Positions 1 through 40,885 are shown, numbered from the stretch's first letter. The stretch is DNA of 64,000 nt from an uncultured Candidatus Saccharibacteria bacterium (GCA_964510805.1 CAZEDG010000002.1:7653-71652), one strand, 5' to 3'. Numbers and translations are program-made. Notes: generated by a model from the letters alone, not told the origin.

Positions 1-649
1 TTTCTTCATTTACTGTTGGTGAAGAGATAGGTACACCATCGAGGAAGATTGATACTTGCTTGCCGATATTTTCTTTTGTGATCTTCGCAAAGAGTTCAGT
101 TCCTTTATCATCAAAAGCAAGCTCGACGAGAGGTCTGTTCGAAGTCTGGTCGAACATAAGTGTTGCCTTCTTGAGGTACGTTCCTGTCAGTTCTGTTCTC
201 TCGAAATTATTGATAAGATCATAGATTGTAGAAGAAGCACTGAGTGGCTTCGCATCTTTTTTCTCAGTACGGAACTCAAGCACTGGGGTCTCGCCAATAA
301 GCTTCGCAGCTTGATCAGTATCAGAAACACCAGGAAGCTCAACCACAAGTCTCCACTCATTCGCAAGGCGACTATATGAGGTAGTCACCGTTGGTTCACG
401 CACCCCAAAGAGGTTCACGCGGCGCTCGATCACATCACGAAGTGATGACACGCTGTCTTCTACATTCACATCTTTTGGAAGTTGTGTAGTGTCTACAGAA
501 TACGTAAGTGCTGCACCCCCTGCAAGATCAAGACCGAGGACGAAGTCTTTTTTGAACTCACCCTTAAAGAGCGTGTCCCCTTTCCATAACCAAATACCGA
601 TAATACTAATAAAGAGAAGTACCCAAAATGCTTGTATTTTATGCTTCAT
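1..649 (-). CDS. secD: Protein translocase subunit SecD, N-terminal part; the gene continues beyond the window start.
   Basis: Reverse-strand translation from the ATG at 647-649 gives MKHKIQAFWVLLFISIIGIW...GLDLAGG...VSIFLDGVPISSPTVNEE, with a signal/TM segment and the SecD periplasmic domain pattern. The + ORF 56..379 is its antisense shadow. Confidence 0.7.
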   Translation of the reverse strand, partial: MKHKIQAFWVLLFISIIGIWLWKGDTLFKGEFKKDFVLGLDLAGGAALTYSVDTTQLPKDVNVEDSVSSLRDVIERRVNLFGVREPTVTTSYSRLANEWRLVVELPGVSDTDQAAKLIGETPVLEFRTEKKDAKPLSASSTIYDLINNFERTELTGTYLKKATLMFDQTSNRPLVELAFDDKGTELFAKITKENIGKQVSIFLDGVPISSPTVNEE

Positions 650-685
650 ACTAGGGGGATTCTACCATAAAGAGTAGATGAGAGA

Positions 686-935
686 CAACCAAAAGGGCCA
701 GATGTTAGAAGTTAGACTTTAGATGTTAGAAAATACAGATAAGTTAATAGTTTGTAGTTAATGGTTAATTGTAGAGAAAGAGGAGTGAGGAGCAAAATAC
801 AAGTTAATAGTTTATGGTTAATAGTTACTGGTAAATACAGGAACACAAGAGCGAGGCCGAAGGCCTCGCTCGTGTGTGTGTTGTGTTTTTATCTAAACTC
901 TAAAGTCTAACTTCTAACATCTAGAGGCTACCTAG
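686..935. repeat. MITE-like palindromic intergenic element, copy E1. Inverted AT-rich arms at 694-716 and 908-932; central GC hairpin at 849-871.
   Basis: The arm agatgttagaagttagactttag is the reverse complement of ctaaagtctaacttctaacatctag. The centre is gagcgaggcc-gaag-ggcctcgctc. It also contains ttaatagttaatgg-type subrepeats. Confidence 0.8.
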
Positions 936-2688
936 TCTTCGCCTCTGCGACACCAATCACTGATTCTTTGAGTGCAACAATCACTGAAGTAAGTGATTGT
1001 TTTGCGCTATCTAGAATAGCACTGAAGTTAAGGTTAACCGCTGGTGGGGTGGCAGGGACAACATCGAATGAAAGACCTCCAACATCAGTGTCATAATCTT
1101 GTGTATGCAGAGTATGGCCAGGAAACCCATACCAGTAATAACTAAGTGTTTGTCGTGTACCAAGTGTATGAGTTCCCGCCGAAGCTGGTGCAGTTAAACT
1201 AAAACTAAATGGAAGAGTATATATATCACCAGAACCAACAAATGTCGGGGAACCGAGATTGCCAGTATTTACAAAAAATAATCCTGGAGGTGGGTTACCA
1301 GCATCAAATGTCGAATTATACGCACCATCACAGTCCCCTTCATCAGAACCTCCATAACCCGCATCTGTTTCGAGCAAAAGACTTCCTGATACTGTCATAG
1401 AATCTCCTGGAGCATAAGTTGGGTTCGTGCCGATAGATATTGTACACCAAAAAGAAATCTCACCCATTCTCCCCCATGTCGAAGAATAAAGAGTAAGCGC
1501 CTCCCCCTTCCCCACCGACATCATACTCATCGCAAGGAAAAACATAGATACTGATGCAACCTTTGCAAGCTTGCCACCTGATACTTTGCGAATAATAAGT
1601 GAAGCGATAATGATAAGAGCAAGTACAGCAATAAGGATATACATAAGTGTTGTGTTATTAGATTGTGGAGTAACTTCTTTCTTAGCAACACGAATCACGG
1701 AGAAGTTATCGGTCTTCTGGTCGAGACGATTGTTATCTTTGTCAAAGAGAGCAAGCGTAATTGTACCCTCCTTACATGTCGCCTTAAGTGTATCTTCGAT
1801 CACAGGAGTATCAAGATCTTTGTGTCCTTGGCCACACGGTGCACCACTCTTGTCCTTAAGCGTATACGTTGCTTTTGACCCCTTAAAAGGAGAAGCTCGT
1901 ACTGTAGCAACAAGGTTGAGTCCGTCTTTACCTTCGGTAACAGCAAGACTCTTAATGATTCCGTATGCACCAGGAACAAATATGTTAGTAAGACTTGTCT
2001 CCTTGGTCTTCTCATCCTTCACTACGAACACTCCACGCTTCACATCACTCTTAAGTGTAAAAGTCTTAGTCTCTCCTTTCTTAACCGTTGTTGTAGCAGA
2101 GAGAAGCGCTGTAGGACTAAAGAGTGCTTCATACTCGGCATAAGAGATTGACGCATCAGCTTTGAAGGTACAGGTTACCTTAAGAGCATCTTTTACTTGA
2201 GCACAATCAATGATAGTGCTTGTATTCTTAGGAACAAGATCCTTTGCAAGAATAGACACAGAGTATCTAAGTCCAGCATCACTCTCAGCAACGAGAAGCA
2301 CTTGTACCTTAGACGCATTAAGAGGAGGAAGGGTGTAGGTAAAAGGCTTGTAGATCATCTCTCCTTCCTTAAGAGAAGGAACAATGCCAAGCCTCTCATA
2401 CGAAATCTGCTTATGGGTAGTCGTGTCCACAACCACAATACCGTACCCTATACCATTCTGCATTCCCATATTGCTCATGATATTGAATCCTCCAGTGTAG
2501 GTACCGTTGGATTCCTTGAAGGTAACATCAACCACACGTACATCAGCAATAACTGATACTTTTGTCTTAGACACCGCACCTGACGGTGGTTGAGGGGCTC
2601 TTGTTTGTTGTGCCGGCGCTTGCGCATACACAAACGATGTTGCTAATAATAGGTAGGTAGAAATAATAAAGGTTGTGGACTTTTTCAT
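928..2688 (-). CDS. Secreted/surface protein of unknown function, copy A (586 aa). It has a signal peptide and a central transmembrane segment.
   Basis: Long ORF. The N-terminus MKKSTTFIISTYLLLATSFVYAQAP looks like a signal peptide. It has a hydrophobic helix MYILIAVLALIIIASLIIRKV and a Gly/Ser/Thr-rich C-terminal domain. The + and - ORFs nested inside are shadow ORFs. Confidence 0.7.
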   Translation of the reverse strand: MKKSTTFIISTYLLLATSFVYAQAPAQQTRAPQPPSGAVSKTKVSVIADVRVVDVTFKESNGTYTGGFNIMSNMGMQNGIGYGIVVVDTTTHKQISYERLGIVPSLKEGEMIYKPFTYTLPPLNASKVQVLLVAESDAGLRYSVSILAKDLVPKNTSTIIDCAQVKDALKVTCTFKADASISYAEYEALFSPTALLSATTTVKKGETKTFTLKSDVKRGVFVVKDEKTKETSLTNIFVPGAYGIIKSLAVTEGKDGLNLVATVRASPFKGSKATYTLKDKSGAPCGQGHKDLDTPVIEDTLKATCKEGTITLALFDKDNNRLDQKTDNFSVIRVAKKEVTPQSNNTTLMYILIAVLALIIIASLIIRKVSGGKLAKVASVSMFFLAMSMMSVGKGEALTLYSSTWGRMGEISFWCTISIGTNPTYAPGDSMTVSGSLLLETDAGYGGSDEGDCDGAYNSTFDAGNPPPGLFFVNTGNLGSPTFVGSGDIYTLPFSFSLTAPASAGTHTLGTRQTLSYYWYGFPGHTLHTQDYDTDVGGLSFDVVPATPPAVNLNFSAILDSAKQSLTSVIVALKESVIGVAEAKTR

Positions 2689-2699
2689 ACTACTTAGTA

Positions 2700-2920
2700 T
2701 ATATGGAAGAAGATAAGATTAACGAGGAAGTTGTACACAGATGGTAATGAGAGTGAAGAATGAAGTTAAACTAGATGTTAGAAAAGCGGATAACAGACCG
2801 CTCCGCTACAGACAACAGATAATAGACAATACACACGAGCGAGGCCGAAGGCCTCGCTCGTGTGTGTGTTGTGTTTTTATCTAAACTCTAAAGTCTAACT
2901 TCTAACATCTAGAGGCTACC
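2700..2920. repeat. MITE-like element, copy E2. It has a variant left arm (acagataacag type). The hairpin at 2837-2859 and the right arm at 2896-2920 are identical to E1.
   Basis: gagcgaggccgaaggcctcgctc followed by ctaaactctaaagtctaacttctaacatctag is identical to 849-932. The left part carries a gcggataacagaccgc palindrome. Confidence 0.7.
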
Positions 2921-4676
2921 TAGTCTTCGCCTCTGCGACACCAATCACTGATTCTTTGAGTGCAACAATCACTGAAGTAAGTGATTGTTTTGCGCTATCT
3001 AGAATAGCACTGAAGTTAAGGTTAACCGCTGGTGGGGTGGCAGGGACAACATCGAATGAAAGACCTCCAACATCAGTGTCATAATCTTGTGTATGCAGAG
3101 TATGGCCAGGAAACCCATACCAGTAATAACTAAGTGTTTGTCGTGTACCAAGTGTATGAGTTCCCGCCGAAGCTGGTGCAGTTAAACTAAAACTAAATGG
3201 AAGAGTATATATATCACCAGAACCAACAAATGTCGGGGAACCGAGATTGCCAGTATTTACAAAAAATAATCCTGGAGGTGGGTTACCAGCATCAAATGTC
3301 GAATTATACGCACCATCACAGTCCCCTTCATCAGAACCTCCATAACCCGCATCTGTTTCGAGCAAAAGACTTCCTGATACTGTCATAGAATCTCCTGGAG
3401 CATAAGTTGGGTTCGTGCCGATAGATATTGTACACCAAAAAGAAATCTCACCCATTCTCCCCCATGTCGAAGAATAAAGAGTAAGCGCCTCCCCCTTCCC
3501 CACCGACATCATACTCATCGCAAGGAAAAACATAGATACTGATGCAACCTTTGCAAGCTTGCCACCTGATACTTTGCGAATAATAAGTGAAGCGATAATG
3601 ATAAGAGCAAGTACAGCAATAAGGATATACATAAGTGTTGTGTTATTAGATTGTGGAGTAACTTCTTTCTTAGCAACACGAATCACGGAGAAGTTATCGG
3701 TCTTCTGGTCGAGACGATTGTTATCTTTGTCAAAGAGAGCAAGCGTAATTGTACCCTCCTTACATGTCGCCTTAAGTGTATCTTCGATCACAGGAGTATC
3801 AAGATCTTTGTGTCCTTGGCCACACGGTGCACCACTCTTGTCCTTAAGCGTATACGTTGCTTTTGACCCCTTAAAAGGAGAAGCTCGTACTGTAGCAACA
3901 AGGTTGAGTCCGTCTTTACCTTCGGTAACAGCAAGACTCTTAATGATTCCGTATGCACCAGGAACAAATATGTTAGTAAGACTTGTCTCCTTGGTCTTCT
4001 CATCCTTCACTACGAACACTCCACGCTTCACATCACTCTTAAGTGTAAAAGTCTTAGTCTCTCCTTTCTTAACCGTTGTTGTAGCAGAGAGAAGCGCTGT
4101 AGGACTAAAGAGTGCTTCATACTCGGCATAAGAGATTGACGCATCAGCTTTGAAGGTACAGGTTACCTTAAGAGCATCTTTTACTTGAGCACAATCAATG
4201 ATAGTGCTTGTATTCTTAGGAACAAGATCCTTTGCAAGAATAGACACAGAGTATCTAAGTCCAGCATCACTCTCAGCAACGAGAAGCACTTGTACCTTAG
4301 ACGCATTAAGAGGAGGAAGGGTGTAGGTAAAAGGCTTGTAGATCATCTCTCCTTCCTTAAGAGAAGGAACAATGCCAAGCCTCTCATACGAAATCTGCTT
4401 ATGGGTAGTCGTGTCCACAACCACAATACCGTACCCTATACCATTCTGCATTCCCATATTGCTCATGATATTGAATCCTCCAGTGTAGGTACCGTTGGAT
4501 TCCTTGAAGGTAACATCAACCACACGTACATCAGCAATAACTGATACTTTTGTCTTAGACACCGCACCTGACGGTGGTTGAGGGGCTCTTGTTTGTTGTG
4601 CCGGCGCTTGCGCATACACAAACGATGTTGCTAATAATAGGTAGGTAGAAATAATAAAGGTTGTGGACTTTTTCAT
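2916..4676 (-). CDS. Secreted/surface protein, copy B. It is 100% identical to the protein encoded at 928..2688.
   Basis: The ORF-track translation is identical over all 586 aa. Nucleotides 2837-4733 are identical to 849-2745. Confidence 0.7.
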   Translation of the reverse strand: MKKSTTFIISTYLLLATSFVYAQAPAQQTRAPQPPSGAVSKTKVSVIADVRVVDVTFKESNGTYTGGFNIMSNMGMQNGIGYGIVVVDTTTHKQISYERLGIVPSLKEGEMIYKPFTYTLPPLNASKVQVLLVAESDAGLRYSVSILAKDLVPKNTSTIIDCAQVKDALKVTCTFKADASISYAEYEALFSPTALLSATTTVKKGETKTFTLKSDVKRGVFVVKDEKTKETSLTNIFVPGAYGIIKSLAVTEGKDGLNLVATVRASPFKGSKATYTLKDKSGAPCGQGHKDLDTPVIEDTLKATCKEGTITLALFDKDNNRLDQKTDNFSVIRVAKKEVTPQSNNTTLMYILIAVLALIIIASLIIRKVSGGKLAKVASVSMFFLAMSMMSVGKGEALTLYSSTWGRMGEISFWCTISIGTNPTYAPGDSMTVSGSLLLETDAGYGGSDEGDCDGAYNSTFDAGNPPPGLFFVNTGNLGSPTFVGSGDIYTLPFSFSLTAPASAGTHTLGTRQTLSYYWYGFPGHTLHTQDYDTDVGGLSFDVVPATPPAVNLNFSAILDSAKQSLTSVIVALKESVIGVAEAKTR

Positions 4677-4739
4677 ACTACTTAGTATATATGGAAGAAG
4701 ATAAGATTAACGAGGAAGTTGTACACAGATGGAAGGAGG

Positions 4740-4852
4740 TAACTAGATGTTAGATATTAGATATTAGACTTTAGATATTAGAAAATACAGATAAGTTAAT
4801 AGTTAATAGTAAACACAAGAACACAAGAGCGAGGCTGTAGGCCTCGCTCTTT
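4740..4852. repeat. MITE-like element, copy E3. This is a half element: a left arm and a hairpin with a tgta loop, with no right arm.
   Basis: ctagatgttagatattagatattagactttagatattagaaaatac ... gagcgaggctgtaggcctcgctc at 4827-4849. Confidence 0.65.
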
Positions 4853-5122
4853 GAAGTTAAGAAACCAGAGGGCTTGCCTCTCTGTTTCAATCGGGATTAA
4901 CCCATTTGTATTCTCAGTATATATCTTACAAGGTATTTGTCGAATTACTATTCTTCTCCTATTTTATCTTCTCCTATTTTAAAATAGTTTTCATAATATC
5001 GAGATTAAGTAAAAAAGCCCCCAACGAAGACGGAACTTCATAAGGGTCTTTTTCGTAGTGATGTAGGTAGTATACACCTATTTAGAAATAAAAAAGGATA
5101 TTCCACATGCTACAATAAAAAT

Positions 5123-5617
5123 ATGAAAAATAACTATGCTTTTATAGATAGTCAAAATGTTTATCTTTCTGTAAAAGAACAAGGGTGGCAAATAGACTGG
5201 AAAAAATTTCGTATTTATTTACGTTTTAAATATAATATTTCAAAAGCATATTTATGTATTGGTTATATTGAAGGTAATAGTGATCTTTACAAAGAATTAC
5301 AAGAAGCTGGTTTTATTTGTATTTGGAAAACAGTTTTAAAATATAAAGATGGAATGATTAAAGGAAATGTAGACGCAGAACTAGTTCTTAATACTATGAT
5401 TGAAAAAGATAATTTCAACAAGGCTGTTATTATTTCTGGTGATGGAGATTTTTTTTGTTTAATTGAACACCTTCTAAAAATAAATAAACTAGAAAAATTA
5501 CTTATACCTAACAAACAAAAATATTCTGCACTTCTTAAAAGAAAAGATATACGTGGTCACACAGACTTTATAAGTGATTTAAAAAATAAAATCGGCAATA
5601 CTAGAGCTAAAAAATAA
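5123..5617 (+). CDS. NYN-domain (LabA/NYN PIN-like) putative ribonuclease.
   Basis: FIDSQNVY ... GNVDAELVLNTM ... ISGDGDF follows the NYN/LabA acidic-residue pattern. The region is very AT-rich (about 28% GC) compared with its neighbours. Confidence 0.6.
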   Translation: MKNNYAFIDSQNVYLSVKEQGWQIDWKKFRIYLRFKYNISKAYLCIGYIEGNSDLYKELQEAGFICIWKTVLKYKDGMIKGNVDAELVLNTMIEKDNFNKAVIISGDGDFFCLIEHLLKINKLEKLLIPNKQKYSALLKRKDIRGHTDFISDLKNKIGNTRAKK

Positions 5618-5621
5618 AAAA

Positions 5622-5658
5622 AGGACCTTTCAGGCATATCATGCGTCCTGAAAGGTTA
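5622..5658 (+). terminator. Intrinsic terminator hairpin after the NYN gene.
   Basis: ggacctttcagg-catatcatgcgt-cctgaaaggt followed by tatcctttt. Confidence 0.55.
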
Positions 5659-5763
5659 TCCTTTTCGTTGGTGATATGTAAAGTATATCTAAATATAAAA
5701 CAATGTCAAGAATTACAAAACATAGAGAACATAAGAAGTCGACAAAAGCGTTAAGAAAAGCAC

Positions 5764-5792
5764 TTGACAAAACAAAAGGATTCGTGTATAAT
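5764..5792 (+). promoter_or_regulatory. Perfect sigma70 consensus promoter: TTGACA, 17-nt spacer, TATAAT.
   Basis: ttgaca at 5764-5769, a 17-nt spacer, and tataat at 5787-5792. It lies about 135 nt upstream of the GC-rich lipoprotein ATG at 5927, which has the SD gaaaggagg. Confidence 0.6.
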
Positions 5793-5926
5793 CTACTACA
5801 GACCTTGTTGGCTTTTCTGATAGCAATGTCTAAGAAGCCAAAAGGAGTCCTTCACAAGATATTCGCAAGAATATCGCGTGGAGTTCCTGCAATTTCTCAA
5901 TTTTCCAACTTCGAAAGGAGGCCACA

Positions 5927-6854
5927 CATGGCCACGTTCATCCGTCGCACCTTCGGCGCGACTCACTCCCTCATTGCAAAGATCCTTGTGATCTTCGCGC
6001 TGGGGATGATCCTCGTCGCCTGCGGTGGTGGCGGGTCCTCGACCCCGACGACCCCCACTCCGCCGGTCAAGACCCCGGTCGCCGGCGACTTCACGATGAC
6101 CCAGAACCCGTCGAACGGAGCAACCGGTGTCGCCGTGAACGTCAAGCCGACGATCACGATCAACGTGAAGGCCGGTACCTATGCCTCGGCGTCTTCGACC
6201 GAGACGTGCGCCGGGCAGACCGTCGAATCGGCGTTTGTTGCGCCGACAGTCTTCACCGGCACGGTTGAGCTTGCCTTGGTCAACAAGGCAAACTTGCCGT
6301 ATGCCACGACATGCGCGTGGAACGGCTCGGTGACTGTCGCTGGGATTGACGGTGGAGCTTCCTCCACCCAAAACTTCAGCCTCAGTTTCACCACCGAGAA
6401 CTGGTGGCCACCCAAGAAGGTGCTCGAGATCGGCGTGAAGGGTGGCGACACCCCTCCGCAAGAGATCCCGATGGAGACCAATCCGACCAACACCCCCGCC
6501 ATCGGCGGTGATGTATGGAAAGCGAAGGTTGCCGACACCACTATCCAAGGGTTCAAAGTTGGCATGAAGTTGACAGGCGTCAACAATGATGAGCTGTACG
6601 GCATGGTCTTTGTCAACCCATTGACGAAAAACCGTTGTGTTGCTCTTGTTTACGCGAAGGATGGTACCAGTATCTTCCAGGATCCTCGCAACTACGGAGG
6701 ATGCAGGACAACTATGTTCGATGCTTGGTGGGGAACCTCTGATGGGTATATCCTGCGTTACCCTTCACTCAGTAATCGCTGTTACAAGACAGTTTTCGTA
6801 CCCTCAAACGGTGGTTTCCAAGAAATCCTTCCTGACGTTCCTTGCCCAAATTAA
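5927..6854 (+). CDS. High-GC lipoprotein, probably acquired horizontally. It has a lipobox (LVAC), a Pro/Thr linker and Ig-like beta-rich domains.
   Basis: Start MATFIRRTF...ILVIFALGMILVACGGGGSSTPTTPTPPVKTP. GC is about 60% over 5927-6700 against a genome background below 40%. The ORF-track start at 5703 is rejected because the promoter and the AT-rich leader lie inside that extension. Confidence 0.65.
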
Positions 6855-6998: not shown

Positions 6999-9900
6999 TT
7001 GTACATTAACATGATGAATTTTATTAACAAAGTTTTCCTGGGAAGTATGTTTGTAATCGCATTACTTCTTCTGTCATCTCATATTGAAATAGTCTATGCA
7101 GGCAATACAAAAACTGCAACATATGGAGACCCTCTACAACTTAACTATAATACTTCTGGAGTAAATAGTTGTAACAATATAGATGTTCCTGGAGGTGGCG
7201 GGTATGCACTAAATGGATCAGTTTCAGCAAACTCTTCGGGTAATTTTGATCCTGGCAACGCTTCTGTTGGTGGTATTTTTACTCTTACTTGTATAGCCAC
7301 AAACGGATCAGGCCCAGCGTCAGACTCTGCCACCCTCACCGTTAACCCTCTCTCTTGTTCCCCTGGTCAATACACCACAGGATCATCGTGTGTTAATTGT
7401 GGTCAAGGATACTACTGTCCCGGAGGAACAACAGCTCGACAAAATTGTGAACCAGGATATTACTGTCCAGGGACAACCGAATCAGATCACACCCCTTGCT
7501 TAGGAGGATGGTCATCTGGATGGAATTCTACCGTATGTAACCCACCATCATGTTACGCTGGAGAGTACTGGGGAGGTTCCTCGTGTCTCACTTGTACAGC
7601 AGGTAACTACTGTCCAGGAGATCAAACCTCTCACCCTTGTGCCGATGGATATACTTCTTCAGGAGGAGCGTCGAGCTGTTCTCCTCGTTGTACTCCAGGT
7701 AACTACTGGACCGGTGGATCAGGTGGATCCTGTGCAACATGCCCTCAAGGAAAAACATGTGATGGTACCACTACTCAGACACCCTGTCCTGCAGGAAAGA
7801 TATGTGATCTAGGTACTGCTCCTGGTGGCGGAACTCTCTGTACTGTAGGAAACTACTGTCCGTCTGGCACAACCCCTGGAGGAGGAGTTCAACCGCCACA
7901 AGCGTGCGGTGGCGGAATGACTTCTAACCCTGGTGCCACCAACTCTAGTCAATGTTTCCTCCCAAGTTGTTCTCCTGGGCAATACCTCAACGCTTCTTCT
8001 TGTGAGCAATGTACCGCAGGATACTGGTGTGATGGAAGTGGTTCACGTACTCCATGTTCAGCAGGAACATACTGTCCAGCAGGGACAGAACCAAGTGGAG
8101 TAAACGGTCCAAAAACATGCCCTCAAAATAGTTACTGTCCTGCACAATCAGGATCCCCTACTTCATGTGAAACTGTTGGTGCCGGATATGTAACCAATAG
8201 TGGAGGCGCAACCAACGCAGGACAATGTCACGCGCCGTCGTGTACTTCAGGTGACTATTGGAACGGATCATCCTGTACCACGTGTACCGCAGGATACTAT
8301 TGTGATGGAACAAGCGGAGGAAGAACTCCATGTCCGGAAAAATTCTATTGTGGACCAGGGACTACAGAACCAACTAATCCATCTAATCCTCCTCGGACAT
8401 GTACCGCTGGATATATGTGTGACGCAGGTACCACAGACTCTGGGGCAGGAAGTCCTACTCCATGTACTCAAGATCACTTCTGTACGGGGGGAAACTCAGG
8501 TCCAAGTGGATCAAACCCTCCAACGGCCTGCTCAACAATTGGTACGGACTTTGTAACAACTGGAACAGGCGCGACAGCGTCTACTGATTGTCATTTGCCA
8601 TATTGTCCATCTGGTAACTACTGGAATACAGGTACTCATGCTTGCGCTACTTGTCCAGAGGGAAAAATCTGTGACGGAACAAGTGCACCTCAACCATGTA
8701 CAGCAGGATATTATTGTCCAGCAGGAACAAAACCAAGTGGTGTAGATGGTCCAAGGAACTGTCCGGTAGGATCATGGTGTGATGGAAATGACGGTAGTGG
8801 TGGCGGTAACACTTCTAATAATGGTGGCTACCCTCCGCAACCATGTTTAGGAGGACTTACTTCTCCAGAAAACTCTATTTCTTCTGGTGCATGTCGTCCA
8901 CCGACATGTCCTTCTGGAGAATACTGGAATAGCACCGCTAGTTCATGTAAACCATGTACTTCTGGTAATTACTGTGGTGGAGATGGAACACAAACTCCAT
9001 GTCCTCCAGGATTCGTATGTGGTCCAACTACAACACAACCAGGTGGAACAAACCCGCCACACTCATGTCCTGCAGGATCTTCCTGTCCTGGTGGAAACAC
9101 CGATCCGGCAGACACTGACACTAACACCAATCCGCCTATCGTCTGTACTGCTAACCACTACTGTCCAACGGGACCAATTATTACCGATCCAGGAACAGAT
9201 AACCCTCTTCCTTGTCCAGAAGGCAAATGGTCAACCGTTGGATCTTCACAACTATCTGACTGTCAGTCATCTAACCCAAGTGGGCCAGACTTAACTATTG
9301 ATACTATCTATCCAACAACTGTGACATCAGGTGTAATGACTACCTTCTATACCACCATTGAGAACAGAGGTACGACTAATACCGGGGCATCATTCTATAA
9401 CCTTGTGTACTTTGCAGATCAAACAGATGGCAATGGAACTATTTCTACAACAACTCCATACAACGGTCTCTACCCTGCATACTATACCGGCAAGATGGGA
9501 ATACTTGGGGTAAGCGAAGCGACAACAACATCAGCACGTCACGCATTCACTGCACCTGGATCAGTAAAATTCTGTACAGACAAGCAAAACCAAAATGATG
9601 CGACCGGGCTTGTAAACGAAGGAACAGGAGAAAACAACAACTGTACCGGATGGATCAATATCGCCATCTCAGGAGTAAGTTCTTGTTCCCCTGGAATGTA
9701 TAACAACGGCAGTTGTGTTGCTTGTCCTCCAGGTAACTTCTGTTCAGGAGGAACTACTCCTTCCCCATGTCCTTCTAACACCTACTGTGACGGTGCTGGC
9801 CCTGGCGGAATCGGTAACACCCCTCCTGGTGGAATCTATCCTCCTGTATCATGTAGTGGTGGATTCGTCTCTCCGCAAGGATCAGGTAGTTCAGGATCTT

Positions 9901-10910
9901 GTGTCTCAGGCGGATCGCCATCTGGTACCCTTACCTCATCATCTAACTCATGTACTATTGCAACAGAAGACTCAACATGTGATGTAACCATGAGCTGGTC
10001 AACCAACTCACCTGTTGGTACAACAGAACTTATTCGCGACGGGCAGGTTGGAGCTCCTATTCCTGACGCTGTTGGTAATAACGTCTCTGATCAACTGATC
10101 CATGTTCCATACGAATCAGATGGTACAGTAGTCTACCAAATCTATAACAACAGTACGTCTCTTGCTTCGAAGTCAATCAATGTAAGTTGTGAGGCCGGAG
10201 CAAACAAATATGATACAGTATCAGGAACATGTGCTGACCCACAAGTGAACGGACTCATTGTAAGAGGTAACTACTATGATGACCCTGGTCATATCGAGTT
10301 CAAGTGTGGAGGATCAGATTCATACGAAGTAAGAATGGATCCAACTGGAGCAAACACTCTTGTACCTGGAGGAAGCGGAGTAAGTACTGGCGATAATCAA
10401 CTTCACAGTGTTTCGGTAAGCACAACACAGGATTATAAAATCATTTGTAAAAAAGGAAGTGTCGAAAAAACAATGACTACATCCTACACAAACCCAGCAG
10501 ACCGCCCACAGGTCGCACTCTCCTTCACCGCCGTGCCTAAGACTATTGAAGTTGGTGGCAAGGTAGTACTCAACTGGGATATCACCTATCCTGCACCTGC
10601 GTGTGTAATGACTGCACAAGTAGTATGTCCTAATGGTACCTGTAACCAGACACTGACAAGTTACCAGGCAGAGCTTAATGCAATGATTCAGTCAGGAAGA
10701 GTTGACCAAGTAGCAGGAAGTCAAACAACTCCAAGAACTATCGCGTCTTCTATCAGTACCGTAACCCCTGGTCACGAAACCACTGATCAGAAAGCAATCG
10801 GCAAGAAGACACTCAGTTCTGTACAAGGAACCACCGACTTCACGATTGACTGTGGAGGGAACAAGAAAGCATCTACTCGTGTCCGTGTTACAAGTAGCAA
10901 GGAGAACTAA
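6999..10910 (+). CDS. Giant secreted cysteine-rich repeat protein (1303 aa). It has about 20 CxxGxYC-type repeats of the ephrin-receptor-like/GCC2-GCC3 style, and C-terminal beta-rich (CARDB/Ig-like) domains.
   Basis: N-terminal signal/TM FLGSMFVIALLLLSS. Reiterated C-SPGQY..GSSC..C..GYYCPGGT units. PDLTIDTIYPTTVTSGVMTTFYTTIENRGTTNTG is CARDB-like. Confidence 0.7.
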   Translation: MYINMMNFINKVFLGSMFVIALLLLSSHIEIVYAGNTKTATYGDPLQLNYNTSGVNSCNNIDVPGGGGYALNGSVSANSSGNFDPGNASVGGIFTLTCIATNGSGPASDSATLTVNPLSCSPGQYTTGSSCVNCGQGYYCPGGTTARQNCEPGYYCPGTTESDHTPCLGGWSSGWNSTVCNPPSCYAGEYWGGSSCLTCTAGNYCPGDQTSHPCADGYTSSGGASSCSPRCTPGNYWTGGSGGSCATCPQGKTCDGTTTQTPCPAGKICDLGTAPGGGTLCTVGNYCPSGTTPGGGVQPPQACGGGMTSNPGATNSSQCFLPSCSPGQYLNASSCEQCTAGYWCDGSGSRTPCSAGTYCPAGTEPSGVNGPKTCPQNSYCPAQSGSPTSCETVGAGYVTNSGGATNAGQCHAPSCTSGDYWNGSSCTTCTAGYYCDGTSGGRTPCPEKFYCGPGTTEPTNPSNPPRTCTAGYMCDAGTTDSGAGSPTPCTQDHFCTGGNSGPSGSNPPTACSTIGTDFVTTGTGATASTDCHLPYCPSGNYWNTGTHACATCPEGKICDGTSAPQPCTAGYYCPAGTKPSGVDGPRNCPVGSWCDGNDGSGGGNTSNNGGYPPQPCLGGLTSPENSISSGACRPPTCPSGEYWNSTASSCKPCTSGNYCGGDGTQTPCPPGFVCGPTTTQPGGTNPPHSCPAGSSCPGGNTDPADTDTNTNPPIVCTANHYCPTGPIITDPGTDNPLPCPEGKWSTVGSSQLSDCQSSNPSGPDLTIDTIYPTTVTSGVMTTFYTTIENRGTTNTGASFYNLVYFADQTDGNGTISTTTPYNGLYPAYYTGKMGILGVSEATTTSARHAFTAPGSVKFCTDKQNQNDATGLVNEGTGENNNCTGWINIAISGVSSCSPGMYNNGSCVACPPGNFCSGGTTPSPCPSNTYCDGAGPGGIGNTPPGGIYPPVSCSGGFVSPQGSGSSGSCVSGGSPSGTLTSSSNSCTIATEDSTCDVTMSWSTNSPVGTTELIRDGQVGAPIPDAVGNNVSDQLIHVPYESDGTVVYQIYNNSTSLASKSINVSCEAGANKYDTVSGTCADPQVNGLIVRGNYYDDPGHIEFKCGGSDSYEVRMDPTGANTLVPGGSGVSTGDNQLHSVSVSTTQDYKIICKKGSVEKTMTTSYTNPADRPQVALSFTAVPKTIEVGGKVVLNWDITYPAPACVMTAQVVCPNGTCNQTLTSYQAELNAMIQSGRVDQVAGSQTTPRTIASSISTVTPGHETTDQKAIGKKTLSSVQGTTDFTIDCGGNKKASTRVRVTSSKEN

Positions 10911-10954: not shown

Positions 10955-11240
10955 TATAACAAAAGAGCGAGGCCTTCGGCCTCGCTCTTGTGTTATATTC
11001 TGCATTTTATCTTCATTCTTCATGCTTCATTCCTCTTTCTCTACCATTAACCATTAACTATAAACTATTAACCTTGTATTTTGCTCTTCATTCTTCATGC
11101 TTCATTCCTCTTTCTCTACCATTTACCATTCACTATAAACTCTTAACTTATCCGTATTTTCTAATCTCTAAAGTCTAACGTCTAATATCTAGTGTCTAGT
11201 GTCTAACCTCTAATATCTAAAGTCTAATATCTAGTCTTCC
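10955..11240. repeat. MITE-like element, copy E4, in opposite orientation (cttc loop). It has an internal tandem duplication of about 65 bp and an extended right arm.
   Basis: Hairpin gagcgaggccttcggcctcgctc at 10965-10987. Two tandem copies of cattcttcatgcttcattcctctttctctaccattaaccattaactataaactattaacc at about 11022-11150. ctaaagtctaacgtctaatatctag-type repeats at 11168-11235. Confidence 0.75.
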
Positions 11241-11293
11241 TCCCCTCTTCATTCTTCACTCTTCTCTCGTATCTTCTATGGTATACTTTTCTC

Positions 11294-12528: not shown

Positions 12529-15189
12529 GTGCAACTTAACTCAGAAGTAGCTTTACTTTCAAGACTAACCAAAGATCATGCATCTGGTCTTGCTCGTCTT
12601 TCGATTACCACAATCAAGGATTTGCTTTTTCACTTTCCTGTTCGTTATGCTGACATGCGAGAGATTGGAAGTACAAAGACACTTGCAAAAGGAGAAGCGG
12701 TTACACTCTTTGGCATACTCGAGAAGGTCACCGTCAAGCGAAGCTTCCGTGGCCATATTCCCATGACCGAAGCCAGGCTTCGTGATGCATCAGGAACACT
12801 TCGTCTTGTATGGTTCAACCAAGCCTACATTGGCAAGATGTACACCGATGATACAAAAGTAAAGATTCAAGGCATTATCCAAGAAGACTCGCGAGGATTC
12901 TTCTTGACCAACCCTAGCATAGAAAAGATACAAGCAATCCCAGAGCCAACTGAGAGTCTCTTTACAATAGATATAAGCGAAGACGGAAAATCAAAAGAAC
13001 AAGAACCTCTCTTCCTCACCCCTGTCTATCCAGAAACAAAAGGAGTTTCTTCGCTCTACCTCTACACACTTATCAAAAAAATTTTTACAAGTAATCTCAT
13101 AGACACACTAGAGGATCCAATACCAGAGGATATTCTCAAGAAGCTTCATCTTCCATCACTCAAAGATGCTCTCACGTATATACATTTTCCTAAAGAGCAC
13201 ACTCATACAGTTATAGCGAGAAAGCGATTTGCCTTCGAGGAGATCTTCTACCTTCAGATAAAACAAAACAAAGAAAAACAGGAAGCAAAGAACTCTCTTG
13301 CGTATCCAATCACTGTACAAAAAAAAGAGCTGAAGGAATTCATGGAGAGGTTTCCTTTTACACCAACACAGGGGCAATATAACGCAATTGACTCCATACT
13401 CTCTGATCTCAAGAAGACCGAGCCAATGGGAAGACTTCTTGAAGGAGATGTTGGAAGTGGCAAGACATTCGTCGCTGCGACTGTTGCATATATGACACTC
13501 CTTCATGCAAATGAAAGCTCTGGTAAGAGACTTCAGGTTGCTTACATGGCACCAACTGAGATACTCGCCAAGCAACACTTCGAGAGCTTCATAACCTATC
13601 TCCAGGGTACCGGTATCGAGATCGGACTTCTCACAGGATCCGGGTGCAAAAAATACCCAAGCAAAGGAGGAGATGAAGTAACCAATATATCAAAAGCACA
13701 GCTTCGCACATGGCTTCATGATGGCCGTGTCTCTATCGTCATAGGTACTCATGCGCTTATCCAAAAGACAATTACCTTCGACTCTCTCGCGCTCATCATT
13801 ATCGATGAACAGCATCGCTTCGGTGTTAAGCAACGTAAACTCTTAGCGCAGAAAGGACGCAGAAATAACGCAGAACAAGCGGAACAAGTAGAAGAATATA
13901 ACCATACTCTTCTTGATGAAAAAAAATCCAATCTTCTCTATGAGACTACAACATATACATTACGCGAAGCATTGTTTACAATAAAAAAAGAACTAGGCGG
14001 TGGCCACAAAGAGATAATCTACGAAAGAGCACTTGAAGAAGAACTAACACGAAAAGGAATACGTTTTTCTCGTCAAGTATCTCTACCTGTCCTATATCGT
14101 GATAAGCAAATTGGAACCTATAGACCTGACTTTATCATTGAAGATAGTATAATTCTTGAATTAAAAGCATTATCTTTTATTGGAGCAGAAGCAAAAAAAC
14201 AACTTTGGACTTATCTAAAAAATACAAAATATTCACTTGGTATTTTAGTGAACTTTTCTCCTACAGAATTACAAATTCAAAGAGTTGTGTACGACACAGC
14301 AAGAACTTCTTCCGCGTCAGTTCCGCCCAGTTCTGCGGTGTCTGCATATAAAATCCCTCACCTTCTCTCAATGACCGCAACACCTATTCCACGCACACTT
14401 GCGCTCACCATGTTCGGGGATCTTGATCTTACTGTGCTTGATGAAGTGCCAAAGGAACGCAAGCGTATCATAACCGAAATTGTACGATCATCTAAACGAA
14501 AAGAAATCTACGAAAAAGTGCGCGAAGAGTTACGAAGTGGTCGCCAAGTGTATGTTATTTGTCCACGTATCGAAGAGGATGACGAAGCGCTTGCAGATAA
14601 GCAAATGCTACGAAGTGTAAAAGAAGAAGCAAAGCGATTAAGTGATACTGTCTTCCCAGAATATGTGATCGATATCCTTCACAGCAAAATGAAGAAAGAA
14701 GAAAAAGAAGAAGTGATGCAAGATTTTCTTGATAAAAAATCAGATATCTTAGTTGCAACCTCAGTGGTTGAAGTTGGAGTGAATGTGCCGAATGCTTCTG
14801 TGATTATTATCGAGCACGCTGACCGCTTCGGCCTTGCACAGCTTCATCAGTTACGTGGTCGCGTCGGAAGAGCAGAACATCAATCATACTGTTACCTCTT
14901 CACCGAAGGAGTAAGTGAAGTTACGTATAACAGACTTATCTCTTTAGTAAAAGCAAAGAACGGCTTCGAGTTAGCTGAGATGGACATGCTTGCACGCGGT
15001 ATCGGCACCTTAAATGATGGCAAGCAATGGGGGCTAAGTGACTTAGCAATGGAAGCAATCAAGAATCCTAAGCTTGTTGAGATTGCACAACAAGAAGCAA
15101 AGTTACTCATAGAAAAAGATACAAGTCTTAACAATCACCCTCACCTTCGCGACCACATCAAGACACACAGTGATGTGCATATGGAGTAG
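12529..15189 (+). CDS. recG: ATP-dependent DNA helicase RecG carrying an in-frame GxxExxY-family PD-(D/E)XK domain insertion.
   Basis: LLFHFPVRYADM wedge-region motif. Helicase motif I GDVGSGKTFVA, motif II IIIDEQHRFG and motif III MTATPIPRTL. VATSVVEVGVNVP and QLRGRVGR are also present. An extra segment of about 167 aa lies between motifs II and III. Confidence 0.85.
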   Translation: MQLNSEVALLSRLTKDHASGLARLSITTIKDLLFHFPVRYADMREIGSTKTLAKGEAVTLFGILEKVTVKRSFRGHIPMTEARLRDASGTLRLVWFNQAYIGKMYTDDTKVKIQGIIQEDSRGFFLTNPSIEKIQAIPEPTESLFTIDISEDGKSKEQEPLFLTPVYPETKGVSSLYLYTLIKKIFTSNLIDTLEDPIPEDILKKLHLPSLKDALTYIHFPKEHTHTVIARKRFAFEEIFYLQIKQNKEKQEAKNSLAYPITVQKKELKEFMERFPFTPTQGQYNAIDSILSDLKKTEPMGRLLEGDVGSGKTFVAATVAYMTLLHANESSGKRLQVAYMAPTEILAKQHFESFITYLQGTGIEIGLLTGSGCKKYPSKGGDEVTNISKAQLRTWLHDGRVSIVIGTHALIQKTITFDSLALIIIDEQHRFGVKQRKLLAQKGRRNNAEQAEQVEEYNHTLLDEKKSNLLYETTTYTLREALFTIKKELGGGHKEIIYERALEEELTRKGIRFSRQVSLPVLYRDKQIGTYRPDFIIEDSIILELKALSFIGAEAKKQLWTYLKNTKYSLGILVNFSPTELQIQRVVYDTARTSSASVPPSSAVSAYKIPHLLSMTATPIPRTLALTMFGDLDLTVLDEVPKERKRIITEIVRSSKRKEIYEKVREELRSGRQVYVICPRIEEDDEALADKQMLRSVKEEAKRLSDTVFPEYVIDILHSKMKKEEKEEVMQDFLDKKSDILVATSVVEVGVNVPNASVIIIEHADRFGLAQLHQLRGRVGRAEHQSYCYLFTEGVSEVTYNRLISLVKAKNGFELAEMDMLARGIGTLNDGKQWGLSDLAMEAIKNPKLVEIAQQEAKLLIEKDTSLNNHPHLRDHIKTHSDVHME
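13950..14300 (+). other. GxxExxY (PDDEXK_3-like) nuclease-fold domain embedded in RecG.
   Basis: GGGHKEIIYERALEEELTRKGIRFSRQVSLPVLYRDKQIGTYRPDFIIEDSIILELKA...LGILVNF matches the GxxExxY family architecture: G-x-x-E-x-x-Y, then D...(D/E)xK. The segment is more AT-rich than the flanking recG sequence. Confidence 0.7.
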
Positions 15190-15365: not shown

Positions 15366-15419
15366 ACTTCACTCCTCATTCTCTACAATTAACCATTAAC
15401 TACTTTGTCGTACCTTATC

Positions 15420-15800
15420 CTCAAAGTGCATCCACCTGGACCAGGAACCTGCGGACCAGTCTTGTATACTAAGACGTATTTTTTATGCACTCCTGTCTTA
15501 TAAACATGGTGCGCCCACCTGGACTCGAACCAGGGACCAGTCGTGTATACTAAGTCGTATTTTGATTTCATTCGTACCTTATCCTCAAAGTGCATCCACC
15601 TGGACTCGAACCAGGGACCAGTCGTGTATAAGACGACGGCTCTACCAACTGAGCTATGGATGCACTTTGTTGACAATGTACTCATTTATCAAAATAAGAC
15701 GACGGCTCTACCAACAAAGCTTAGGCGCACTATGTTTATAATCCCCTCGTTTTCAAAAATAAGACGACGGCTCTATCTGCAAAACTTAAATCCAACAAAA
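15420..15800 (-). repeat. Cluster of partial tRNA copies around the tRNA above: two degenerate 3' halves and two degenerate 5' halves.
   Basis: 3'-half copies are at about 15430-15480 and 15505-15560; the latter reads ...CCTGGTTCGAGTCCAGGTGGGCGCACCA with an encoded CCA. 5'-half copies are at about 15700-15740 and 15755-15800 (aagacgacggctctacc...). ORFs 15389..15685 and 15543..15869 are artefacts of this array. Confidence 0.6.
15591..15663 (-). tRNA. tRNA with anticodon UAU (predicted tRNA-Ile, AUA-decoding; tentative isotype).
   Basis: The reverse complement folds as acceptor GCATCCA/TGGATGC, D-arm GCTC-AGTTGGTA-GAGC, anticodon stem GTCGT/ACGAC with loop CTTATAC, variable loop TGGTC, and T-arm CCTGG-TTCGAGT-CCAGG, with discriminator A. 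No CCA is encoded. Confidence 0.55.
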
Positions 15801-18339: not shown

Positions 18340-18430
18340 TTGTCTATTCTAACACATGATACAATGTTCTAAGCTATTAGTATGTACTATTACTTTTTGG
18401 CAATATTGTAAAGACTAATAGCTAAGCATT

Positions 18431-28434: not shown

Positions 28435-28503
28435 AGGCTACGATTATACCATAGAATGCATAAAAAGAAAAGGCCACCATGCGGTAACCTTCTTAGGCAA
28501 CAA

Positions 28504-33735: not shown

Positions 33736-33947
33736 AGTCTCTTCATTCTAGCATAAATCACCGAATCGAAAAGAATGCATCTCTTGTTATACCGTTCCCA
33801 ATTAATGCTTCCGAATGAGTATCTTTCTTATTTTTTAACGAAAAACCTTGTCGGAACAGAAATCATATAAATCTATGATGATAGTGAGACAAGTGTTTTG
33901 CAATAAAAAATAAGAAAGATACCCGAAATTGTTAATTAGGAATGGTG

Positions 33948-36631: not shown

Positions 36632-37186
36632 CTACAACTGCATCTCTTTAAGAACATGCTGAAGATGGGTGCGGACTACCTTTTCGTTAAGCACTAATCT
36701 TGTATAGAGTTCATCAAGTGAAAGCGTGTGATATTCTTGTATCCCTTTAACCCCAAGCGTTGTAATATCGATATACCCAAGATCAGCAAGAATAATACAA
36801 TAAAGAAGGGTTCTAGCGAACAAGTCACCGTAGGAAGAACTTCCTTTAAAAAAAGAAAGCAATCTATCATAAAGTAAGCTGTGTGATCCTTCACCCTTGA
36901 TAAATCTTTTAAGAAGCTGAGTTCCTTCCTGAAGGTATCTAAAACTTTGACTATCTTTTTCGGCACCAACAATTCTCCAAACCTCTTTACCTTTTACAAG
37001 AGTAAGTAGCGTCACCGAACGAGGAAGCACATGCGGGCGTAACTTACTCTCAAGTTTCCTGATACTCTTGGCGTGACACATAAGAAGTCCGAACTCTCGT
37101 GTAAAAATCTTAAACACACGATCATGTTCTCCTTGATCGTACATCTCAAGCACAATACCCTGTGTCACATATTTCTCAATCGCCAT
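36632..37186 (-). CDS. recO: DNA repair protein RecO (short form).
   Basis: The N-terminal OB-fold pattern QGIVLEMYDQGEHDRVFKIFTREFGLL fits RecO. Confidence 0.6.
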   Translation of the reverse strand: MAIEKYVTQGIVLEMYDQGEHDRVFKIFTREFGLLMCHAKSIRKLESKLRPHVLPRSVTLLTLVKGKEVWRIVGAEKDSQSFRYLQEGTQLLKRFIKGEGSHSLLYDRLLSFFKGSSSYGDLFARTLLYCIILADLGYIDITTLGVKGIQEYHTLSLDELYTRLVLNEKVVRTHLQHVLKEMQL

Positions 37187-40100
37187 GACCTAAGGTAAGT
37201 GAAGCGAACACAGAAGAAGATGAAAGCTCGATTACTTTACCTTTACAATCTTTGTCATAGATAATCTCTTCTGCGCGAACTACTTTCTTAAGATCATATA
37301 TTTCTTCATCAGAAAGTTCTATAGAAAGCGCAATTGAATTAACCGTTTCTGAGGAAGAAAGATTATGCTCCTTACGTAACTCTTGTAACCCTCGCTGAAT
37401 CTTACGAATATCACCTTCTCGCTTAAGCGCTTCTGTGATTGTTACATCAAGCACAACATCTTCTTTTTGATTTTTATCATAGAACACTTCCTTTACGTTG
37501 AGCTCTTCTTCAATAAGGAAGATAAGTTCTGGGTCAACTTCTTTGTTAAAAGTAACAGAGCTAAGTGGTTGCTTAACAGAGAGCTTATGTTCTGTACGCT
37601 TCATCAACCCAAGAGAGACAAGCTCTCGCACCTCTTTCATAGAAGCAATAAGTTCTTTATCAATAAATCCCTGCTCTGGCCACTTCTCAAGATGTACTGA
37701 TGCATAATCACCGCGAAGTTCTTGATATGTTCTTTCTGCAAGAAAAGGCAATACTGGGGCAACAGTCTTAGCAAGCGTAAGAAGTACATAACGAAGTGTG
37801 CTGTACGCTTCATACTCATCTTCTTCACCAGTTAAGCCTTTGAGGCGATCACGAGAACGTCTTGTATACCAGATAGAGAGATCGTCAACAATTTGATCAA
37901 TACCCTTGGTTGCTTCGTCTAACTTGTACGCATCATATCCGTCTGTTGCTTCCTTCACAAGCTCATGAACTCTACTTATCATCCATCTATCCAAAGGATT
38001 AGATGATGACGTTCCTGCTTGCACTTGCACGTTACCCATCTTGTAAAGCGCTACCACGTTATCAAATCGCATGATACATCGCTTGTATACTTCATCAAGT
38101 TCTTTATCACTGAAGTTAATCGACTCACCTTTTACAACAGGAGAAGACATGAGGTACAAGCGAAAAGCGTCAGCGCCAAATCTCTCCACAAGAAGCATCG
38201 GATCTGTATAATTATTAAGACTCTTACTCAACTTCTTTCCATCAGATGCATTGATTAGACCATTACAAATCACGTGCTTGTACGGCGCAATATCGAAAAG
38301 TCCTACACCTAAGTTAATAAGTGAATAGAACCATCCTCTTGTCTGATCCATACTCTCAGCAATAAATGTAGCTGGATACGCCTCCTTAAAGAGATCTTTG
38401 TTTTCGAATGGATAATGAATAGAAGCAAAAGGCATAGACCCAGACTCGAACCAACAATCGAATACATCAGAAATTCTTGTATACACTTCTCCACCTACAA
38501 TAAGCTCCACTCCATCGATATAAGGACGATGAAGATTGATTGCGCCAGTTGCGTCACGTGGCACAGAAGCCGGCACAAAACTAATCACTTGACCATTGTG
38601 TACATTAAGCCCCTCTTCTTTGTGCTTATTTGCAATAATCTCTTCGCTTGTTGCAAGCTCTGCTTCATGAATACCCATATATACCATAGAGCCATGTGTC
38701 ACAAAAAGTATCTTCTTGCCTTCATATTTCTCTTCACATGACGCAACCACTTGCATAAATCTATGTGCCCCATCTCTAAATGATTCACCTCCAGGAACTC
38801 TCTCATTAAGATGCTCATGAATACTTCTTATAGAACGAAAAGTTGTCGCGTTCATTGATTCATATTCTCCAAAATGGAACTCTCGCAACCTCTCATCAAC
38901 CACGATAGTTGCCTGTGTTCCTTTTGCAATAATTGCTGAAGTTTCTCTTGTACGAAGAAGTGGTGAAGTGATGATGACATCGACACCAAGCTCTTGTATC
39001 TTATTACCCGCAAGCACTGCTTGCTCAATACCTTTCTCAGTAAGTGTATTAGTCTCATCTCCAAGACTATCCAATCTATCAAGCACATTGAACACCGACT
39101 CGCCGTGACGCATTGCAAAGTAGGTATTCTTAGGTTTCTTGGTTGCACATGAAGCAAGCTCCTTGAGGGAACCAACTACGTGAACCTTACTTCCATCATG
39201 ATTCTTCCACACAGGAAGAGGTGCTCCCCAATACCTCGAACGAGACACCGCCCACTCACGAGCGCCTTCTAACCACTTACCAAATCGTCCATCACGAATA
39301 TGCTCAGGAGTCCATCCGATTGCACTATTTTCTTTGAGAAGCTTTTCTTTCATCTTAGGCACATCAACAAACCATGATGATGTAGCGTAGTTAAGAAGCG
39401 GAGTCTTACATCTCCAACAAAGTGGATATGAGTGCACAATCTTATGCTTCTCAAAAAGTTTTCCATTATGGGCAAGCCATTTAATAATCTCAACATCAGT
39501 TGACTGAGTATCTCCTGCTTTCTTAACCTTAAGCCCTTTAAAATCTTCTACATCATCAGTAAATGTTCCATCCATCTTCACATGCTTGATAACAGGAATA
39601 TTATGTTCCTTTGCAAGTTGCATGTCCTCATCACCAAACGCAGGAGCTTCATGCGCAATACCGGTACCAGCATCTTCGGTAATAAAATCTGCATGCCAAA
39701 TCTTCCAAATGTTTTCTTTGTGTTCAAGTTCTTTATCTTTAAAATACGGAAACAACGGGAGATACTTCTTGCCAACAAGAGTGCTTCCTGGAAATTCACC
39801 AACAATCTCCTTTGATTCGTTATCTTTAAAATATTCTTCGACTTTACTCTTTGCAAGAATATAACACTTCGTGATTCCTTCTTGTGTACTTTTTACTTTT
39901 ACATACACAATATCTTTATGAAGTGCAAGCGCTGTATTACCTGGAAGTGTCCATGGGGTTGTTGTCCACGCAAGCACGTACGTTCCCTTTTCTTCTTCGA
40001 GTTCAAATTCTGCTGTCACAGAAAGATCAGTCACATCAGTATACTCAAGACCAACCTCTGATTGTGCAAGAGGAGTCTCACACCTCGGACAGATATGCAT

Positions 40101-40643: not shown

Positions 40644-40659
40644 GGTGTTTGTAGTATCG

Positions 40660-40885
40660 ATAAAAATAATAAAGCCCTCACACAAAGACTATCTTTGTGC
40701 AAGGACGAGTGAGATCGTGGTACCACCTTGCTTTACTTCTCTTCGAAGTCTTATTTAGTCGGGTTCTACTTGTCTTACATAGGACTTATGTATTAGTCCT
40801 GTTACAAAAATAGTAAGAGGTTCTTCCCACACCAAGGAGTGATTAGTTCCTTCATCGTGTATATATCTTTATACTAACAAAAAGA
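40660..40885 (-). promoter_or_regulatory. T-box-like riboswitch leader of ileS.
   Basis: On the minus strand: a GA-motif stem I region gatgaagg; the T-box-like box gcaaGGTGGTACCAcg (RC of 40716-40731); a terminator cacaaaga-tag-tctttgtg with extended stem (RC of 40676-40704) followed by a U-tract about 20 nt before the ATG. Confidence 0.5.

Follow-up and report, generated by a model that had tools for sequence, protein, structure and literature searches.

A tandem duplication of a predicted surface-protein gene with ends in palindromic heptamer-array elements in a Candidatus Saccharibacteria genome

The DNA analysed here is a 64,000-nt window from an uncultured Candidatus Saccharibacteria bacterium (TM7; GCA_964510805.1 CAZEDG010000002.1:7653-71652), and the subject is a 1.9-kb repeat near its start, each copy of which carries the gene of a 586-aa protein predicted to lie at the cell surface. 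By direct comparison, positions 849-2744 and 2837-4732 are identical over 1896 nt, head to tail, with an offset (period) of 1988. An exact repeat of this length cannot be due to chance; it is a tandem segmental duplication, that is, two adjacent direct copies with a novel join-point, and no third copy of the unit is found in the window. We give a probability of about 0.55 to the reading that the duplication is real, that it ends in palindromic, terminator-like elements and is older than the divergence of the strains seen here, and that the identity of the copies is due to gene conversion, to assembler collapse, or to both.

Anatomy of the duplicated unit and its joint

The left limit of identity is the first base of a hairpin (849 in copy 1, 2837 in copy 2), just as the original prediction had placed it. 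The bases immediately before it, 848 (A) and 2836 (C), differ, and the five bases before these (843-847, ACACA) match their counterpart before 2836 because both arms end in the ACACA motif of the element described below. At the right limit, 2745 (T) and 4733 (A) differ, 2746 and 4734 (both A) agree, and the alignment then ends. The 1897-bp identity of the original prediction is real as an exact repeat and one base too long, the last base claimed (2745/4733) being the one that differs; its 91-nt spacer is strictly 92 nt (2745-2836), and 91 nt is obtained only if the repeat is taken to run to 2745.

Each copy holds the complete 586-aa open reading frame (ORF), the hairpin and the right arm of an element, as had been proposed. 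Both units (849-2744 and 2837-4732) lie on the minus strand, and each looks like a complete minus-strand transcription unit, with a putative promoter, the ORF and a terminator-like hairpin. They span about 56 nt upstream of the ATG (2689-2744 in copy 1, 4677-4732 in copy 2), the gene itself (928-2688 and 2916-4676) and the sequence from there down to the hairpin of the downstream element. In the promoter stretch the hexamer TATACT ends 7 nt before the ATG, an arrangement of the leaderless type, and TATACT-N7-ATG is common to the window gene and its orthologue in the closest genome found (L003, discussed below). A sigma-70 consensus scan did not flag the promoter of this gene, and the -10-like box is a candidate suggested by similar boxes ahead of the orthologue and of other genes of the window.

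Both ends of the duplication lie inside a dispersed palindromic family, the left one where the hairpin begins and the right one at the start of an element arm. The GC-rich 23-nt hairpin, GAGCGAGGCC-GAA-GGCCTCGCTC, is found at 849-871 and 2837-2859, and its pattern occurs at seven sites in the window, all in the first 24 kb, versus zero expected in shuffles. The hairpins are flanked by heptamer arrays (TAGANNT, GTTAATN, GAATGAA) arranged as inverted arms; the canonical arms are about 80% alike and therefore represent a true dispersed family. The whole of element A (695-927) folds into a long palindrome (z = -10.0), and so does that of element B (2746-2915; z = -8.5). In element A, the left arm (700-848), a canonical member made of TAGANNT and GTTAATN arrays, forms a perfect 24-bp outer stem with the right arm, a 54-nt TCTAANN array at 872-925 that lies inside the unit and recurs in copy 2 at 2860-2913. 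Its hairpin (849-871), with a 10-bp stem and the tail TTGTGTTCCT, is terminator-like for copy 1 on the minus strand. The hairpin of element B (2837-2859) has a stem of 16-18 bp with ACACAC/GTGTGT flanks and is terminator-like on both strands. Element C consists of a canonical left arm (4733-4826) and a hairpin with the loop TGTAG (4827-4849), lacks a right arm, and stands between copy 2 and a divergently oriented gene encoding an NYN-domain protein. The hairpins are terminator-like by score and also occupy terminator positions: five of the seven are directly 3' of an ORF, and the one at 4827 is located between divergent genes.

The joint between the copies, J (2745-2836), is a mosaic and forms the left arm of the hybrid element B. 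It had been called unique, which applies to the joint as a whole, as it occurs once in the window, and not to its parts, which are modules of the repeat family. Counting from 2746, nucleotides 1-40 are canonical modules and nucleotides 44-74 are an ACAGA-type module that matches at 30 of 32 positions the element following the stop codon of the orthologue in L003, and other elements of that genome as well. Aligned with the left arm of element C, J matches at 57 of 92 positions, with gaps, and with other full-length arms of the family at 56-58. A simple crossover between the hairpins that flank the array today predicts that J equals the arm at 4733-4826, and it was rejected on this comparison; since J is no closer to the flanking arms than to any other member of the family, a fresh crossover of the flanking hairpins is unsupported. 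The element-linked recombination or slippage put forward in the original prediction fits in so far as both ends of the duplication lie in elements, and does not fit as a join made from the hairpins now flanking the array. Rapid decay of a fresh joint is unlikely as well, because the left arm of element C is stable across assemblies, being identical in contigs L004 and L005 and keeping its module order in L006. The right arm of the unit pairs best with the left arm of element A in its distal part (the 24-bp stem mentioned above) and with J near the hairpin, so neither outer arm can be called the original partner.

All four types of junction are found in public contigs. Contig L001 (JGI 3300045348) covers window positions 1-2891 at 100% identity and reads from the left arm of element A through the unit and J into the first 55 nt of the second unit, and L002 (Logan SRR12487046) covers 2715-4732, also at 100% identity, as the unit plus J with a 30-nt overlap, which forms a loop in the k=31 graph. 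Contig L042 (JGI 3300045345) runs from window position 1558 down to 1 and past the window start, from secD through the left arm of element A into the unit. On the other side, L004 (JGI 3300045345) covers 3828-6038, from the unit through the left arm of element C to the NYN gene, and L006 (ENA ERZ4216102) covers 4728-6351, beginning 5 nt inside the end of the unit and running through the same arm. J with unit sequence on both sides is thus present at 100% identity in two other assemblies (L001 and L002), and any genome with a single J therefore has two copies of the unit.

Between contig L004 and the window there are 21 substitutions, confined to 3883-3993 (equivalent to 1895-2005 in copy 1 and to 56-166 of the contig, which begins 55 nt before the first difference), and the other ~2,100 nt are identical. 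This 111-nt patch covers codons 228-265 in the third β-sandwich domain of the predicted protein and leads to eight amino-acid changes. To judge from its sequence, the patch has to be read as recombination from a divergent allele. A target of a diversity-generating retroelement was considered and rejected, as the substitutions involve all bases and are not adenine-specific, and no reverse transcriptase is found in the window.

Origin of the array and competing explanations

We infer that the array of at least two copies most likely arose by unequal recombination between dispersed copies of the element on either side of the gene, which would leave a hybrid element, composed of J, hairpin and right arm, at the join. 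The event is probably older than the strain divergence seen here, because J is unlike the arms that flank the array today and those arms are stable between strains. After an old event, gene conversion could have maintained the identity of the copies over 1896 nt; on the other hand, both copies may come from one graph edge in a short-read assembly, and if the source is such an assembly they would be identical by construction. The three options offered originally for the zero divergence (a recent event, gene conversion or an assembly artefact) are indeed the right ones to weigh.

Several points speak against an old, homogenised array. Identity up to both ends of the part that can be aligned would be expected sooner from one recent event, or from assembler collapse, than from old copies homogenised by conversion, and the reading leaves the details of how J arose unexplained. 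The copy number is read from contigs rather than from read-level data; all supporting contigs are from short reads and end inside or at the repeat, and the circular-looking unitig L002 fits a circle as well as any copy number of at least two. The JGI and Logan data may come from one sample, their independence being unproven, and the single copy seen in related genomes (see below) is a single copy as assembled and could be a collapsed repeat.

An explanation that we rate as unlikely, and still as the strongest of the rivals, is a duplication only generations old, produced by an event more complex than a hairpin-by-hairpin crossover, for example a crossover with the chromosome of another strain bearing a J-type arm, or the integration of an excised circle of unit plus J by homologous recombination. 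One event predicts identity that runs, on either side, to the last base of the homologous segment, as is seen here. A circle of this type integrating anywhere in the unit would give the order observed (left arm of A, unit, J, unit, left arm of C), L002 is a circular-looking path of 1988 nt, and the gene does recombine in the population, as the patch in L004 shows. However, such an event needs a donor in which J stands on at least one side of the gene. The contigs include no such donor: in every contig recovered the arm by secD is the left arm of A and the arm by NYN the left arm of C; the unit of the donor must in addition be identical to that of the recipient.

Somewhat less likely again is an assembly artefact, in which the array is a graph loop that is present as a tandem array in no single genome, being formed from the arms of mixed strains or from a single copy and a separate circle, or in which the copy number is simply not two. 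An NCBI contig of 79,764 nt is recorded as carrying the exact protein, yet independent short-read assemblies break in this region, one after 55 nt and another after 30 nt of the repeat. The genome closest to the window is a metagenome-assembled genome (MAG) from a short-read co-assembly, a repeat of 1.9 kb exceeds the inserts of short-read libraries, and strain variants coexist in the same samples. Against this stand the presence of all four junction types in contigs and the position of J between unit sequence in two other assemblies, which means two copies unless J itself is present twice, a less economical assumption.

It was also suggested that copy-number variation could serve as a dosage or phase-variation mechanism. 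RecA-dependent expansion and contraction would then produce cells that differ in the copy number of a surface protein for host interaction; we think this improbable. A perfect tandem repeat of such length is in general an unstable substrate for recombination, the protein is fast-evolving (see below) with a mosaic patch in another sample, and L004 (from sample 3300045345) reads from the gene into the left arm of C without a break at the end of the unit, which is compatible with a single-copy strain. However, there is no on/off switch: the hallmarks of phase variation (a repeat tract or invertible segment in the ORF or core promoter, or an inverted promoter) were not found at the locus, and the heptamer arrays are outside the ORF and outside the duplicated 56-nt promoter stretch. 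Heterogeneity in copy number is a conjecture, the gene is single in all three other genomes examined, and instability would be a by-product of any duplication and is no sign of a device.

A mobile cassette, integron-like or composite and bounded by miniature inverted-repeat transposable elements (MITEs), inserted twice can be practically dismissed: hairpin-bearing repeats do bound the unit, and unit plus J closes on paper to a circle of 1988 nt, but the gene is a resident one with orthologues in the same place beside secD in two other genomes, the copies are adjacent and not dispersed, the window ORFs scanned (120 aa or more) include no integrase, transposase or reverse transcriptase, and the unit has no match among plasmids. 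An integron gene cassette in particular was rejected because no integron integrase is found in the window and the gene is syntenic beside secD in relatives.

The encoded protein and its genomic surroundings

The N-terminus of the 586-aa protein is hydrophobic and signal-peptide-like, ending in VYA-QA, and two further hydrophobic stretches follow, a strongly hydrophobic helix at about 346-368 and, after a short basic loop, a second segment at 376-392. In an AlphaFold model (24 family members, mean pLDDT 75) three β-sandwich domains (45-330) are followed by a helical hairpin (345-389), a fourth β-sandwich (397-543) and a terminal helix. The original description of a protein with a signal peptide and a transmembrane segment agrees with these predictions from the hydrophobic N-terminus, the two hydrophobic segments and the model. 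Foldseek searches against the PDB returned only generic arrays of β-sandwiches of the macroglobulin or fibronectin-III (FN3) type, and the protein had no match in Pfam, NCBIfam or a sequence-profile search of the PDB. From the model it can reasonably be predicted to be an uncharacterised cell-surface protein, and nothing more specific.

A word-indexed protein search returned one homologue only, and it took an exhaustive profile search with a hidden Markov model (HMM) to reveal the family, which counts ~190 cluster representatives, 49 of them below 1e-30. Some of the longer members carry additional CARDB, TSP1 or Big_2 domains. There are also members of ~380 aa that cover only the N-terminal half and the first helix and others of ~180-200 aa that cover only the second helix and the C-terminal domain; the 586-aa form may be a fusion, or the shorter entries may be fragments.

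A scan of a genome collection with the protein found a single related genome, L003, a MAG named uncultured Candidatus Saccharibacteria, and a scan of a metagenome collection with the protein found no relative. The comparison with related genomes that had been proposed shows the gene as single-copy in all three of the other genomes examined, as assembled: an orthologue is located directly upstream of secD in L003 (41% amino-acid identity) and in L043 (30%), and a more distant family member elsewhere, not beside secD, is single as well. The family is thus found immediately upstream of secD-secF in three genomes (window 928-2688, L003 10001-11710, L043 8001-9698) with the protein only 30-41% identical. 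The neighbouring SecD of L003 shares 78% amino-acid identity with that of the window, versus 41% for the duplicated protein, which therefore evolves fast.

The array lies between secD, the downstream gene, of which the 5' part is present on the minus strand (1-649, cut by the start of the window; 77.8% amino-acid identity over 216 aa to SecD of a related genome), and the NYN-domain gene on the plus strand (5123-5617), a conserved neighbour on the other side. Pfam identifies SecD_1st/SecDF_P1_head on the same secD gene in contigs L001 and L042. The gene order of L003 matches that of the window: a CARDB protein, a 355-aa protein, NYN, the homologue, and then secD and secF. The window as a whole is housekeeping chromosome, with secD, RecG, FtsH, SmpB, tmRNA, IF3, S6, SSB, MetRS, IleRS, ArgRS, NusG and L11, and its GC content is 40.6%, versus 43% for the duplicated unit. 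A Pfam scan of window ORFs of at least 120 aa detected no transposase, integrase or reverse transcriptase, and no paralogy was found between the duplicated protein and the neighbouring 383-aa and 1303-aa proteins. On the far side of NYN, the identity between the window and L004 stops abruptly at about 6038, inside the unannotated ORF of 383 aa (5703-6854) that adjoins NYN. Beyond that stop L004 carries different genes (2212-4316; 419 aa and 119 aa), and contigs L007 and L008 also stop close to this position; the 383-aa gene is a strain-variable breakpoint.

The elements extend beyond the array and beyond this genome. Further matches are found upstream of the window start in L042, and related genomes show the same architecture with other heptamers, ACAGAnn/GCTnCGC in L003 and GTAGTGA in L039, versus TAGANNT/GTTAATN here. 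The sites of this architecture are at 700-23475 in the window, 8970-9100, 9740-9960 and 11706-11860 in L003, ~4445 in L039 and ~2371 in L015. A scan of metagenomes for the hairpin returned 32 loci, mostly in unrelated high-GC sequence, and the combination of hairpin and heptamers was found there only in L039 and L015. The element that follows the gene of the 1303-aa CARDB protein (10965-11240) has a right arm of ~250 nt (10988-11240) with 10.6 copies of TCTAANN and a 75-nt internal tandem duplication (11005-11072 and 11080-11147, 93% alike). In L003 there are two NYN genes at the locus, and a direct repeat of 187 nt (8905-9091 and 9658-9844, 93% alike, spacing 753) covers the start of each together with an ACAGA-type heptamer element, a second local duplication tied to elements.

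Many other genes of the window have a -10 box (TAGAAT, TATACT, TATAAT or TACAAT, often after TGn) that ends 6-10 nt before the ATG, and these genes have no Shine-Dalgarno sequence; examples are at 650-670, 5100-5122, 11275-11293, 18340-18360, 28435-28455 and 33736-33756. This pattern suggests that leaderless or near-leaderless mRNAs are widespread in the source genome. Three further observations concern genes away from the array. IleRS (37176-40685, minus strand) contains an inserted histidine-phosphatase (His_Phos_1) domain at residues 524-679. RecG (12529-15189, plus strand) contains an inserted PD-(D/E)XK nuclease domain at residues 474-586, and the same insert is present in RecG of a related MAG. 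At 15411-15790 (minus strand) a single tRNA-Ile(UAU) gene (15590-15663) lies between tandem partial copies of itself, with two units resembling its 3' half downstream (81-nt period, 77-79% alike) and two resembling its 5' half upstream (65-nt period, ~80% alike); of these sequences only the central one is scored as a tRNA, and the partial copies may have been left behind by repeated duplication at the site or by integration events at the tRNA.

Parallels and implications

The closest known parallel appears to be the tandem duplication mediated by repetitive extragenic palindromes (REPs) in enterobacteria. In Salmonella and Escherichia coli, REPs and the bacterial interspersed mosaic elements (BIMEs) they form mediate tandem chromosomal duplications whose join-points are inside the palindromes. 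As here, they are short, GC-rich, intergenic palindromes of a dispersed family, located 3' of genes; the join-point is inside an element and leaves a hybrid element at the joint, and an array formed in this way tends to undergo RecA-dependent expansion, loss and conversion. Unlike them, the present elements are much longer (~110-300 nt) and consist of a hairpin between inverted arms of heptamer arrays specific to the lineage; the window shows no transposase of the RAYT type, and the arm at the joint is unlike the present flanking arms.

For the identity of the copies, the tufA and tufB genes of Salmonella offer an example of concerted evolution of duplicated genes by gene conversion, in which, as here, two copies are identical over the whole homologous stretch and their flanks differ. 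The present copies, in contrast, are directly adjacent, and gene conversion between them is a putative cause of a picture that assembler collapse would give equally. Heptamer arrays are known as short tandemly repeated repetitive (STRR) sequences from heterocystous cyanobacteria, where tandem heptamers likewise fill intergenic regions and the heptamer varies by lineage. Those are from a different phylum, whereas here two arrays face each other across a terminator-like hairpin as the inverted arms of one palindrome, and a literature search returned nothing linking STRR heptamers to Saccharibacteria; a search on repeats and duplications in Saccharibacteria likewise gave nothing useful. The original label of MITE-like elements is in keeping with the long inverted arms and the seven dispersed hairpin sites, and MITEs such as the Correia elements of Neisseria are similarly small, non-coding and dispersed with inverted ends, often stand beside promoters or terminators and are able to promote rearrangements. 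However, no target-site duplications are obvious at the element ends when read by eye and no transposase was found in the window, so that MITE status is unproven and any mobility hypothetical.

A tandem duplication that ends in repeats is ordinary, textbook dynamics of bacterial genomes. A more far-reaching interpretation, which we hold to be doubtful, is that Saccharibacteria harbour an undescribed family of palindromic, heptamer-built terminator elements, with heptamers varied by lineage and a conserved architecture, that repeatedly duplicate and homogenise adjacent genes and so lead to copy-number variation of the secD-linked protein. The locus belongs to what is likely a metagenome-assembled genome and is flagged here for read-level checking, and the analysis also points to an unannotated protein family (~190 clusters) and to an undescribed family of elements.

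Saccharibacteria live attached to host bacteria, and surface proteins are obvious candidates for host recognition; to our knowledge almost all of those in Saccharibacteria are uncharacterised. Should the array be real, a fast-evolving surface-protein gene, elsewhere present once beside secDF, has been doubled in this lineage; as both copies come with a putative promoter and a terminator-like hairpin, we infer a roughly doubled expression capacity for it. The duplication would show that abundant intergenic palindromic elements can reshape the gene content of small Saccharibacteria genomes, and, if the more far-reaching interpretation is true, copy-number variation of the surface protein could matter for attachment to the host bacterium.

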